37,921 nt of DNA from a virus: the UHGV virus genome UHGV-0081762. One strand, 5' to 3'. Position numbers and translations under genes: made by a program. Below are positions 7 to 37,881 of this stretch, in pieces. Below the pieces are notes generated by a model. The model ran no database searches and had not been told where the DNA came from. It saw only the letters and a list, made by a program, of their open reading frames with translations. The number at the start of each line of letters is the position of its first letter. Positions within the stretch are counted from its first letter, which is position 1.

Positions 7-82
7 GCCGATATAGCTCAGTTGGTAGAGCAGCGCATTCGTAATGCGAAGGTCGGAGGTTCGACTCCTCTTATCGGCACCA
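7..82 (+). tRNA. thrW: tRNA-Thr (anticodon CGU), thrW-like; 3' portion from about position 37 is the prophage-side att copy
   Basis: Cloverleaf readable by eye: acceptor GCCGATA/TATCGGC, D-arm GCTC..GAGC, anticodon loop TTCGTAA (CGT), T-loop TTCGACT, CCA at 80-82. Confidence 0.85.
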
Positions 83-100
83 TTTAAATCAATAAGTTAC
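37..100. repeat. attL direct repeat (tRNA 3' half plus 18 bp downstream)
   Basis: attcgtaatgcgaaggtcgGaggttcgactcctCttatcggcaccatttaaatcaataagttac matches 37818-37881 with 2 mismatches. Confidence 0.85.
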
Positions 101-18234: not shown

Positions 18235-18309
18235 GGGTCAGTCGTATAAAGGTCATTACGGAAGGCTGTTAACCTTCTTATCGTGGTTCGAGTCCACGCT
18301 GTCCCGCCA
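18235..18309 (+). tRNA. tRNA-like gene, probable anticodon GUU (Asn); one acceptor-stem and one D-stem mismatch
   Basis: Hand-folded: acceptor GGGTCAG/CTGTCCC, anticodon stem GAAGG/CCTTC with loop CTGTTAA, T-arm CGTGG-TTCGAGT-CCACG, GCCA end. Confidence 0.45.
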
Positions 18310-18314
18310 AATAT

Positions 18315-18390
18315 GCTGGTTTAGCTCCAATGGTAGAGCAGTCGCCTTGTAAGCGAATGGGTAGCGGTTCAAGTCCGTTAACCAGCACCA
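18315..18390 (+). tRNA. tRNA, probable anticodon UGU (Thr)
   Basis: Hand-folded: acceptor GCTGGTT/AACCAGC, D-arm GCTC-CAATGGTA-GAGC, anticodon loop CTTGTAA, T-loop TTCAAGT, ACCA end. Confidence 0.6.
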
Positions 18391-34430: not shown

Positions 34431-36797
34431 ATGACAGACATTACAGCCAATGTTGTAGTGAGTATGCCTTCGCAACTTTTCACTATGGCGCGTTCTTTTA
34501 AAGCAGTAGCCAACGGCAAAATTTATATCGGAAAAATTGACACTGACCCGGTAAGTCCAGAAAACCAGATTCAGGTTTATGTAGAGAACGAAGACGGCTC
34601 TCATGTTCCTGTTTCGCAACCAATCATCATTAACGCTGCTGGATATCCGGTATATAACGGGCAGATTGCCAAATTCGTAACTGTGCAAGGCCATTCTATG
34701 GCTGTATATGATGCATATGGCACTCAGCAGTTTTATTTTCCAAATGTATTAAAATACGATCCTGATCAACTTAGGGAAGAGATTTTTTCTGACCGTATGC
34801 TGCTAATTACGCCACAGCATTATGGGGCGAAAGGTGACGGTGTTAACGATGATACGGTGGCATTTATTGCAGCAGCAAATGCTCTTGGAGATGGTGGAAA
34901 GTTATATATTCCAACTGGAACATATAATTTAATTGGACCAGTTAATATACCACCAGTGAATATGTGTGGCGATGGACAGGGTAAAACGGTTATTGTGTTT
35001 GATAATACCACATCACCAAAAGATGGATTTGTTTTCGCTGCACCAACTAAGCATGATGTTGAATTTGGTTTAAGTCACCTTACAATTAAAAGCAAAGGCG
35101 GGAATGGCGCTAATGCCATATATACCCCAAGAGGTGTCGGGCTTAATCATCTAAGGCCAAAACCAACATTTAGATTTTTATCTTTCTGTTCTGAGACTGC
35201 AAATATTGATTCTGATGAATTCGCACAGAAGTACGGTTGGGAATGGTCTTTTAACTGTGGTGATAGTTGGCAGTTCACAATCGAACGCATTGATGCTGTT
35301 GGATGTTATCAGATAGCCAAAAGTTATAATGAACAGTTCCTTGATGGATTCATTCGCACCGCTCCAGAAGAAGGTATTTTATCCATGCGTGTGAGTGATA
35401 TCACAACGCATAACGTTGCCAATTTTTTTGAAATTAAGCAGAAGACATATTTCAATCTTACCAATGTCGATGTTGCTAGATCCCTAAACGGTGTTTATGA
35501 TGCTCAGGATAGAGTGTTCGAATCAAATCGCTATGCGTATGGTGAGTCTATATGGACAAACGTTATCATTAATAGCCAGCTTCACCCTATTAATCTTGAT
35601 AACAGATTTCTTTTGATTGCTAATGGACTAGCCATACATAGAGCAGGAGGAGGATATGACCACGGAAATGAATGGGTAGGAATTAGACTCATCAGACCAA
35701 GAGTGTGCACCATTAATGGATTGGAGATTAGCAGTGCATCAGGTTATACGACGACTAAAAAAGGAATAATTATAGATGGTGGCGATGCAAACAACTTCAT
35801 TAATGTAAGTTTTGGTACATTGGATATTGGAGCTCAGATAGGAGTAACATCATCAATACATGGAGCAAATCAGGCGACAAACTTTTCCAATATTAGCATT
35901 AATGCTAATGTCACAACATTACTTAACATACAAAACGCACGTGGTTTTAATTGCAGCCAGTATACTGCATCTCCTCTCTACACTCTTGCCAATTTCATGG
36001 TCAATGATGACAAAGTAAAAAACACATTTACACTTACAAATATTGATGGCAAAAATAATTACACTGATAACTCTATTTATCTTTATAATCAGGAAGCATC
36101 AGAAGATACCAAAAGATGGAGGATAGATACTCGTACCGGATACACACTATCCACTCAGAAAGACAATGGTGCACAAGGTAATAACGCTATTATTATTCGT
36201 CGCAGTGGAATAATTGTAGACTCTATAGAATTACGCACAAAAAACGATTCTGGCGGATATCTTCTTCATACATCACCTGAAACTCATTTTTCTGGCCTTA
36301 TAAAACCAACTGTTGATAATGTTAACTCAAACGGAACATCAGCATTTCGATGGTCACAGGTATACGCTGGTACTGGCAGTATCAACACGTCGAATGAAGA
36401 GCTGAAATTGCGTATTGAGGCTGACGAGAAAACAACAGAATCAGAGCGTCTTGCTGCGCTTGAAATAAAGAAAAATATCTGGAGGTTTAAATTTAAAGAT
36501 GCAGTAAAGATCAAGAGTGATGGCGCTCGGATTCATTTCGGTGTTGGTGCACAAACTGTAGGTAATATTCTCAGAAAATACGGTCTTGACCCTAATAACT
36601 ATGCGTTCTGGTGTTATGATGAATGGGATGATATTTATGCTCCAGAGGTATTAATTAGGAGTGTTAAAAACAATGAAACAGGAGAGTGGTACGACGAGGA
36701 ATATTACACAGGAAGGCAGGTTATTATTAAACCTGCTGGTTATCAGTATGGTATCAGATACGAGGAACTTCTGATGTTTATTCTTATGTTTATTTAA
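34431..36797 (+). CDS. Tailspike: P22-like N-terminal head-binding domain, pectate-lyase-like beta-helix, C-terminal S74-type intramolecular chaperone
   Basis: N-terminus [40 protein letters not shown]...KYDPDQ matches P22 gp9; [17 protein letters not shown] motif; C-terminal [10 protein letters not shown]...GIRYEEL. Confidence 0.85.
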
Positions 36798-36800
36798 AAT

Positions 36801-36820
36801 ATAGCGCAGGGATGCGCTAT
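36801..36820. terminator. Bidirectional hairpin between convergent tailspike and acetyltransferase genes
   Basis: Perfect inverted repeat atagcgc-aggga... gcgctat. Confidence 0.5.
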
Positions 36821-37488
36821 TCAACAATTTCACCGGATGGAAGAATTGTAAATCTCTTATAAGATGCCTTCTTTTTATCTTTTACAGCATTAAACTGCTC
36901 TAAAAAAGTAGTCGGTGTCCTTGTATCAATCCCAATAAATGAGCTTAAATCATATTCCCACCATTGGCTATCCAGTAACTCTTTGATGATTGATTCCTCA
37001 AATCTGTACCCTAGGTGTTTTGCAGAAACGCCACCTACGATTGAATATGGCTCGACATTTTTGGTGACAATAGCGCCAGCAGCAATAACAGCGCCAGTAC
37101 CAATAGTTATACCTCGCCTGATAACCGCATTTGCACCTATCCATACGTCATGACCAATTCTTGGTATACCATGCTTCTGTTGAGAGAGGTCGCGTTGCAT
37201 TCCTATACCATCAGGGATTTTAAAACCATTTTTTGAGCCAAAGAAAAAAGGATGCGTAGAAAAATACCCAGTTTCATGCTCGCCAAGGCCAATTTTTACT
37301 CCTGGAGCAACTGAACAAAATCTACCCATCGTAAAGCCGCCGAGCATACAATTAGCGCCAAAGTAGGAGAATGCTCCAACATTTATTGGGGCAACAACAA
37401 GACCTGAAGCATGAAAAAAACATTGCTCCTCGAAGCTAACTTTTGCTTGTGGAGTCATCTGAACGCTTAACATTGCATCAATCACCAT
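36817..37488 (-). CDS. Hexapeptide-repeat acetyltransferase, XAT family (CatB/Vat-like)
   Basis: [45 protein letters not shown] and [16 protein letters not shown] align with CatB-type chloramphenicol acetyltransferase as recalled. Confidence 0.7.
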
Positions 37489-37817
37489 ATCTTAAACACA
37501 AACTTTGACAAGCTAACATATTAATCATGAACGGAAAACCATAAAACAACGAGACGTGCGTCTGGTGACAGATTCCTGCATCGCAGTTAAAGCAGAATTA
37601 CCTATGAGACAAAACTAAGGTACACAAAGCTTTGCACTGGATTGCAAGGCTTTGTGCTCTTCTATGCTGGGTGGCTACATGTTTGAAGATCGTTGTGCCG
37701 TATTTGTGACATACACATGACAACATCATGCATCAACTTTCTGTTTGTGCCATCAACTATTGCTTGGTGAATGCGGTTAATGCTTGCTAAAACAGATAGT
37801 TATGATTGGTTCTACAG

Positions 37818-37881
37818 ATTCGTAATGCGAAGGTCGTAGGTTCGACTCCTATTATCGGCACCATTTAAATCAATAAGTTAC
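37818..37881. repeat. attR direct repeat containing displaced native 3' half of tRNA-Thr (ends CCA at 37866)
   Basis: attcgtaatgcgaaggtcgTaggttcgactcctAttatcggcaccatttaaatcaataagttac; no matching tRNA 5' half upstream. Confidence 0.85.

Follow-up and report, generated by a model that had tools for sequence, protein, structure and literature searches.

A hexapeptide acetyltransferase beside the tailspike of a P22-like Escherichia coli prophage is a putative O-acetyltransferase of a rare group-2 K antigen

The right end of the prophage

The DNA analysed here, virus genome UHGV-0081762 (37,921 nucleotides, referred to in full as the window), is a complete P22-like Escherichia coli prophage integrated at thrW. 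Its final gene before attR is an open reading frame (ORF) on the minus strand at 36817..37488, convergent with the tailspike gene, which encodes a soluble hexapeptide enzyme of 223 amino acids (aa) from the first ATG. The fold of this protein, the genomic contexts of its homologues and its confinement to E. coli hosts with a single capsule locus suggest that it is probably a cytoplasmic O-acetyltransferase of a rare group-2 K antigen, and a putative functional analogue of NeuO.

A first-pass annotation of the window had described the gene as the last before attR, convergent to the tailspike and AT-rich, and this agreed with the ORF, the att repeats and the GC content (0.408, where the bulk of the prophage has 0.483). 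The anatomy of the window likewise bore out its description as prophage cargo in the slot between tailspike and att site. In near-identical copies, RefSeq places the start five codons downstream, at M6 (window 37473), giving a protein of 218 aa. Since a homologue with 62% identity (P0003) also begins at the position equivalent to M6, 37473 is the probable true start.

The tailspike gene (34431..36797, plus strand) encodes a protein of 788 aa with a P22 head-binding domain at aa 1-113 (Pfam PF09008, 8.9e-67), a pectate-lyase-like beta-helix forming the receptor-binding or depolymerase part, and a C-terminal Peptidase_S74 intramolecular chaperone. At the 3' end of this gene a 12-nt unit is repeated 2.2 times (36769-36794) and encodes the C-terminal '...LLMFILMFI'. 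Between the two convergent genes lies a hairpin, not assigned to either strand, with a perfect 8-bp stem and a 4-nt loop (36801-36820), which overlaps the acetyltransferase stop codon. It scored as terminator-like on the minus strand, where it is followed by ATTTTAAATA, and was identical in 4/4 aligned copies; it is likely to be a terminator common to the tailspike and acetyltransferase genes. Because the receptor-binding part of the tailspike gene is equally AT-rich (GC 0.382), that part and the acetyltransferase gene look like a single imported cassette.

The region upstream of the acetyltransferase gene (37489..37665, minus strand) is conserved together with the cassette in prophages integrated elsewhere, and similarity to prophages at the torT site stops at window position ~37665. 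Near the end of this similarity, still within the conserved region, is a second hairpin with a 14-bp stem (37623-37656), which might insulate transcription or belong to an attP arm. No tandem repeats were found in or upstream of the gene, including no heptanucleotide repeats like those of neuO. Clustered GATC sites regulate gtr in P22; a visual check upstream of the acetyltransferase gene for such clusters showed a single GATC only. Codons 23-25 contain a T7 homopolymer on the coding strand (37414..37420, minus strand) that is polymorphic among E. coli copies. T7 was read in the window and in GF43, 2018-10-1CC, LSC52 and TUM9803. With the alternative T6 allele, the frames from M1, M6 and M11 end after 24-34 aa, and an internal ATG behind a GAGGAG motif comes into frame and opens an ORF of 201 aa.

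At the left end of the prophage, ARAGORN identified an intact tRNA-Thr(CGU) gene (7-82, plus strand) that contains the attL core. This core is a 64-bp direct repeat (37-100, plus strand) comprising the 3' part of the tRNA gene, and its counterpart, the attR core (37818-37881, plus strand), holds a 3' fragment of tRNA-Thr plus downstream bases, with 2 mismatches to 37-100. In the ORF list, a 386-aa ORF at 97-1257 on the minus strand occupies the position of the integrase gene. The prophage also carries tRNA-Asn(GTT) and tRNA-Thr(TGT) genes at 18235-18390, and the same pair lies between the Q antiterminator and holin genes of the related prophage of strain 2018-10-1CC.

Fold and genomic contexts of the acetyltransferase family

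Pfam recognised only hexapeptide repeats in the protein (Hexapep 9.6e-12, Hexapep_2 5.2e-11). The closest solved relatives by sequence in the Protein Data Bank were type B chloramphenicol acetyltransferases (CAT) and Vat enzymes (E 3e-26 to 8e-20), members of the xenobiotic acetyltransferases (XATs). H71 aligned with the XAT catalytic His, which is the His of 'GNQGHRTDWVSTFPFF' in 6pu9 and the corresponding His of VatA chains 6x3j and 4myo, and it was invariant in 43 homologues, as were G55, C58, D114, V115, W116, G132, Y148, R162 and W176. This His, on the extended loop of XATs, is His79 in PaXAT and His82 in VatD. A C-terminal 'QWW' segment also aligned with XATs. An AlphaFold (AF2) model built on homologues had a mean pLDDT of 94.1 and short beta strands throughout, and the top 20 Foldseek matches to this model were all type B CAT or Vat enzymes (E 3e-10 to 1e-8, TM 0.48-0.56, identity 30-38%). 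No membrane segment was detected in the protein (maximum Kyte-Doolittle value 1.43).

The XAT hallmarks that the first-pass annotation had read in the protein are therefore genuine as regards the fold and the catalytic residue: the hexapeptide repeats, the 'QWW' segment and the proximity to type B CAT and Vat by both sequence and fold are all present, and the alignment to CatB and Vat that it had suggested for the catalytic His placed H71 at the XAT position. Identity to the nearest solved XAT folds was 30-41% over about 135-165 columns, and the first ~50 and last ~40 residues of the protein do not align with XATs. The NCBIfam model for CatB (NF000490) gave 97.4 bits, against an equivalog cut-off of 350, and aligned only with residues 53-182, while the Vat model (NF000311) gave 99.6 bits against a cut-off of 300. 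Because scores of 97-100 bits compare with cut-offs of 300-350, the protein is neither CatB nor Vat. The best NCBIfam match was TIGR03308, a phosphonate-metabolism hexapeptide transferase, at 120 bits and under its cut-off of 201.65. The structure of NeuO (3jqy) was matched with E 8.9e-5 over residues 112-157 only, which are generic hexapeptide coils.

A search of 5.8 billion proteins returned one 99% cluster, followed by homologues with at most 66% identity, and the neighbourhoods of seven of the closest homologues were examined. Four of these, P0004 (59% identity), P0014 (56%), P0009 (52%) and P0020 (48%), are encoded in Kps capsule loci, adjoining a large polymerase gene and lying between KpsM/T and KpsS/C/D/E genes. 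A fifth, P0017 (55%), also adjoins a large polymerase, on a shorter contig. These five homologues share 46-59% identity with the window protein over 87-98% of its length. The other two belong to prophages: P0003 is encoded by the last gene of a P2-like prophage, next to a tail fibre gene and that of its chaperone, and P0016 (50% identity) by a gene directly after the tail genes of a lambda-like prophage of Pseudomonas putida. The polymerases beside the acetyltransferase homologues are proteins of 1,160-1,210 aa without a Pfam hit that form one family (23-70% pairwise identity). They match Bcs3, the capsule polymerase of Haemophilus influenzae type b, with E 1e-25 to 3e-28, and one of them also matches the solved ribofuranosyltransferase 7shg.

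The same arrangement occurs in E. coli O15:H12 strain 2273-PO3, where an in-locus acetyltransferase beside the polymerase is 52% identical to the window protein. The kps locus of this strain (L014) is interrupted by insertion sequence elements, and its kpsT fragment is annotated as a pseudogene. More distant XAT-like genes were found in O-antigen clusters; the one of O127, with 37% identity, lies between wzx and wzy. No close homologue was found on 72,556 plasmids, where the best matches (at most 45%) lay on rhizobial megaplasmids and environmental replicons, or in the collection of sequenced phages, where the best match (46%) was to Staphylococcus phage records. Species-representative genomes held distant relatives only (at most 50%), with KpsC/S/D/E-like genes nearby in 5 of 80 loci, which offers weak support for a capsule context.

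The tailspike could be linked to the same capsule loci. Its residues 126-783 are homologous to a 741-aa beta-helix protein with a Peptidase_S74 domain in the capsule locus L010 (27% over 675 aa, E 8e-49) and to a second beta-helix protein, of 609 aa, encoded by the 2273-PO3 locus (E 3e-11); both of these proteins are encoded beside acetyltransferase homologues. The tailspike appears to recognise the same capsule that is the probable target of the acetyltransferase. In all, tailspike-like beta-helix proteins were seen inside three acetyltransferase-bearing Kps loci (L010:3896-6121, L014:11942-13771 and L013:6128-7999), one of them with Peptidase_S74. A related receptor-binding part, with 54% identity, is found in the tailspike of PSK1, a lytic T7-like phage.

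Distribution among E. coli genomes and the host capsule locus

Among 5,426 complete E. coli genomes, the acetyltransferase (at least 99% identity) was present in 10 assemblies, always in chromosomal prophages and always adjoining this tailspike family. The pair was found at three integration sites: at thrW in the window, GF43 and TUM9803, adjacent to torT in A10, 2018-10-1CC and GF4, and adjacent to intS as a second copy in GF4. The tailspike and acetyltransferase therefore move as a cassette.

We read the O loci of four hosts from the type-specific wzx/wzy names in RefSeq. The O types were O154 in 2018-10-1CC, the O17/O44/O73/O77/O106 family in A10, O25 in AVS0578 and O16 in AH21A060. An O antigen common to the hosts, for which the O154 cluster was also searched, was ruled out by these four different loci. 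In AVS0578 and AH21A060 the kps loci are identical and the tailspike alleles are 99.6-100% identical to that of the window, and because such near-identical alleles occur in both O16 and O25 hosts, the O antigen is unlikely to be receptor or target. In contrast to the O loci, one rare group-2 K-locus region 2 was shared by every carrier. This region was present in 22 of the 5,426 genomes, and all 10 carriers were among these 22 (Fisher p 1e-25, or 8e-24 without duplicate assemblies). Restricted to the four lineages whose O types were verified as distinct, the co-occurrence gave p 1.5e-10. The K locus of 2273-PO3 was also considered for the gene-carrying hosts and was ruled out, being unique to that strain among the 5,426 genomes.

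The first-pass annotation had offered, as one option, a cytoplasmic sugar acetyltransferase giving serotype conversion. This comes close to the best-supported function, although its proposed target, the O antigen of lipopolysaccharide (LPS), is poorly supported, given four O types and one K locus. Since the four O types differ while a single rare group-2 capsule locus is common to all carriers, the likely target is the K antigen, as it is for NeuO of CUS-3, a precedent absent from the first-pass annotation.

Some carriers were informative about the history of the cassette. The torT-site prophage of 2018-10-1CC is decayed: much of the phage is gone and, through truncation by IS1, only 266 aa of the tailspike are left. 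Even so, this prophage keeps an intact acetyltransferase gene, and its retention fits a benefit to the host. A second P22-like prophage of this strain, near sbcB, has a related tailspike and no acetyltransferase. GF4 is a double lysogen with P22-like prophages at different att sites and two tailspike variants. The presence of the same T6 acetyltransferase allele in both of its prophages suggests exchange between them. In an older assembly of NRZ14408 (NZ_LT599830.1) the acetyltransferase phage is a separate record of 41,305 bp in which the integrase gene lies beside the acetyltransferase gene, an attP-like junction. The newer chromosome of this strain (NZ_CP158426.1) was absent from the acetyltransferase matches, and the phage may have been excised or lost.

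Hosts of the rare K locus carry two tailspike variants that share 81% identity overall and 48-60% across aa 400-600, and both are present in GF4. NRZ14408 (L015) also encodes a tailspike in a non-P22 prophage whose receptor-binding part is 79% identical at the aa level to that of the window tailspike. This protein, annotated as 'glycosyl hydrolase family 28-related protein', has another N-terminal anchor and is not accompanied by an acetyltransferase. Tailspike genes of this non-P22 kind were also seen in Br_112_kylling, EC17CM13 and AR_0085. Because these three hosts are without the rare K locus, the central domains of their tailspikes may have another specificity.

Region 2 of the host K locus contains two genes only, encoding a 1,169-aa polymerase (WP_039720365.1) and a 329-aa protein (WP_000028051.1). 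No hexapeptide acetyltransferase was found in the host K locus when the kps loci of AVS0578 and AH21A060 were read. Along its full length the host polymerase shares 70% identity with the L004 polymerase, and it matches Bcs3 with E 2.8e-28. In L004 the 59%-identical homologue P0004 adjoins the polymerase, at the place taken by the 329-aa gene in E. coli. Given this similarity of the polymerases, and an acetyltransferase supplied in cis in L004, the prophage would therefore supply the acetyltransferase in trans. The capsule itself is probably a polymer with ribofuranose and Kdo, judging by analogy from the architecture of the polymerase, from kpsU as the sole precursor gene in the locus and from the literature on KrkA-type loci. 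A KrkA homologue without documented serotype has been described in O16:H5-ST131 (PMC12887879). The JBC paper gives it 41% identity and states that it 'may synthesize K19 or K97'; it may be the host polymerase itself.

The 329-aa protein (L030:7257-8246) is alpha/beta-hydrolase-like, with a G-x-S-M-G-G motif and tetratricopeptide repeats. A homologue was seen in the P. putida prophage (L008:9782-10930; 26% identity over 314 aa, E 2e-23), where its gene lies directly downstream of that of the acetyltransferase homologue. The 329-aa protein and the acetyltransferase may act as a pair.

Interpretation, alternatives and known systems

In the mechanism that we propose, the acetyltransferase would be expressed in the lysogen, where, probably as a trimer by analogy with solved XATs, it would use acetyl-CoA as donor and His71 as general base. 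The predicted acceptor is a sugar of the nascent group-2 capsule, which would be O-acetylated at a particular position in the cytoplasm before export by KpsMT. The tailspike would recognise the same capsule, with both genes travelling together among P22-like prophages. By analogy with NeuO of CUS-3, the altered K antigen might serve capsule-specific phages less well as receptor or substrate, and its antigenicity might be changed.

Several observations weigh against a capsule O-acetyltransferase. The N-terminal 423 aa of the host polymerase have no detectable solved relative, so that the proposed content of Kdo and ribofuranose is deduced from architecture and literature, and the host 329-aa protein might itself be an acetyltransferase or an esterase, which would blur the added value of the phage enzyme. 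GF4 and 2018-10-1CC each carry two related prophages, and this misfits strict superinfection exclusion, a misfit qualified by the T6 allele in both GF4 copies. For an independently expressed moron, a terminator hairpin is present, and the opposite orientation, the lower GC content and retention in a decayed prophage suit cargo, yet the promoter match is only weak: a single sigma-70 match was found upstream (37511-37484), fewer than expected by chance. The frameshifted T6 allele was present in A10 and both GF4 copies, 3 of about eleven copies, and could reflect phase switching, a mutation that has become fixed or an error in sequencing the homopolymer. Finally, the co-occurrence with the K locus could stem from the host range of the tailspike alone, with the acetyltransferase doing something else.

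This last possibility, in which the enzyme would acetylate a nucleotide sugar, a phosphonate-type metabolite or some other small molecule of the cytoplasm, or have another role for the phage, would fit TIGR03308 as best NCBIfam match and the PHROG family matched by the protein, which is without known function. The TIGR03308 score is well under its cut-off, however, and the sole argument that counters a host-range effect comes from the homologue contexts: independent Kps loci in which a homologue adjoins a polymerase number at least four, with one further case on a short contig, and in L004 the homologue lies exactly at the position of the region 2 accessory gene. We therefore regard another substrate as improbable. 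P22-like phages usually carry O-antigen modification genes in this slot, and some O-antigen clusters of E. coli, such as that of O127, do contain XAT-like genes, so conversion of the O serotype by acetylation of LPS would have been the customary role for such cargo. Against this stand the four O loci of the four typed carriers beside the one K locus of all carriers, the near-identity of the tailspike alleles across O16 and O25 hosts, and the position of the nearest homologues (46-59%) in Kps loci, the O-antigen-cluster gene being more distant. We consider an O-antigen target quite improbable.

The first-pass annotation had also raised an antibiotic-modifying enzyme, which would make the gene a phage-borne resistance determinant of the CatB (chloramphenicol) or Vat (streptogramin A) type. 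By sequence and by fold, the solved structures closest to the protein are indeed those of type B CAT and Vat enzymes, whose catalytic His it keeps, and RefSeq names it 'CatB-related O-acetyltransferase'. This option is nonetheless made unlikely by CatB and Vat scores far under the cut-offs, by an alignment at 30-41% identity confined to a core of ~135-165 residues with unaligned termini, by plasmid homologues of 45% at best, and by the location of all close homologues in capsule loci or phage tail modules, next to polymerase or receptor-binding genes, together with the confinement of the gene to one K type. A resistance function is very improbable, and in resistance-gene screens the 'CatB-related' name mirrors fold, not function. 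We give equally little credence to a decaying or non-functional passenger gene. The T6 allele of A10 and GF4 and the lack of a clear promoter would suit such a gene, but all family-invariant residues are kept, most copies are intact and at least 99% identical, the gene is intact where IS1 destroyed the tailspike, and the T6 allele still offers an in-frame product of 201 aa. O-acetylation of the rare K antigen thus remains the probable function.

We also put forward, tentatively and as a proposal more doubtful than the function itself, a wider scheme in which the prophage gene rather than kps sets the O-acetylation state, and with it the serological subtype and phage susceptibility, of this untyped K antigen of extraintestinal pathogenic E. 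coli including ST131, a polymer probably of ribofuranose and Kdo. T7/T6 slippage might switch this state. Under this scheme, prophages of podo-, myo- and siphoviruses would carry a widespread receptor-editing cassette, in which an XAT-like acetyltransferase accompanies a tailspike or tail-fibre gene and in some cases also an alpha/beta-hydrolase. E. coli K antigens are targets of vaccines and phage therapy, and genome-based K typing assumes that the kps locus defines the antigen. A prophage acetyltransferase tied exclusively to one K locus, found in ST131 and other lineages, offers a concrete case to set beside this assumption, about half of the genomes with the rare K locus being lysogens. 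If the enzyme acetylates the capsule, prophage content has to be weighed for this K type in typing tools, in cocktails of phages or depolymerases and in the design of glycoconjugates. Under the wider scheme, receptor-editing cassettes would account for pairs of K serotypes that are indistinguishable by kps sequence. Such a pair, K18 and K22, is noted in kTYPr, a 2026 typing scheme, where the acetyltransferase is placed probably outside kps (PMC13171606). kTYPr also groups K types that share an ORF of more than 1,100 aa with KrkA-like architecture, and prophages are unmentioned in it (PMC13171606). Nothing in the literature searched described the window gene, or an acetyltransferase that a prophage encodes for this K locus of E. 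coli.

Among known enzymes, CatB, PaXAT and Vat share with the window protein the fold, the extended loop bearing the catalytic His and a C-terminal helical 'WW' segment, but the window protein scores far under the curated cut-offs for CatB and Vat, diverges from them in its N- and C-terminal parts and lacks a resistance-element context. Oac of Sf6 and many prophage enzymes of that kind are membrane acyltransferase-3 proteins that act after export, in contrast to the soluble, cytoplasmic hexapeptide type found here. What would be common to all of them is modification by a temperate phage of a surface polysaccharide used as a phage receptor, as also for the Atr acetyltransferases reported from Acinetobacter baumannii phages (PMC13228068) and the prophage acetyltransferases associated with K loci in Klebsiella (PMC13123978).

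Closer in sequence are the capsule-locus acetyltransferases of L004, L009, L010, L013 and 2273-PO3, which belong to the same clade (46-59%) and have the same invariant His, length and architecture. Their partner polymerases are of the same Bcs3-like ribofuranosyltransferase-phosphatase family as the polymerase that, in lysogens, is present in the same cell as the prophage enzyme. Whereas these acetyltransferase genes are chromosomal and lie within region 2, the window gene is on a prophage, away from kps and linked to a tailspike. For the K13 capsule, a single large enzyme, KrkA, is both Kdo transferase and ribosyltransferase-phosphatase, the locus holds KrkA plus an acetyltransferase named 'vatD', and K13, K20 and K23 differ by O-acetylation alone (PMC12887879). 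The KL112 capsule locus holds a 'CatB-related' gene, again next to a large polymerase of this kind (bioRxiv 10.64898/2025.12.15.689991). Both the K13 'vatD' and the KL112 gene are likened to the window gene by their published description.

The nearest functional parallel is NeuO, the soluble hexapeptide O-acetyltransferase that the P22-like prophage CUS-3 encodes for the K1 capsule, which is polysialic acid (PMC3046976). O-acetylation by NeuO shields K1 cells from lytic K1 phage and from neutrophils (PMC13001214). The two enzymes differ in that they have no specific sequence relationship, the window enzyme belonging to an XAT-like branch, and in that the target capsule of the window enzyme is not polysialic acid. 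The genes differ too: neuO is co-directional with its tailspike gene and has a heptanucleotide repeat tract, while the window gene converges on its tailspike and shows only the T7/T6 homopolymer polymorphism. However, the setting is alike in both. In CUS-3, neuO lies between the endosialidase tailspike gene and int, and the window gene, cargo that likewise encodes a soluble hexapeptide enzyme, is placed in its P22-like prophage between int/att and the gene of an apparently capsule-specific tailspike that ends in a chaperone domain. In each case the host has a group-2 kps locus without the enzyme and the phage gene is confined to one K type, and NeuO acts in the cytoplasm on a polymer exported by KpsMT, as the window enzyme is predicted to do.

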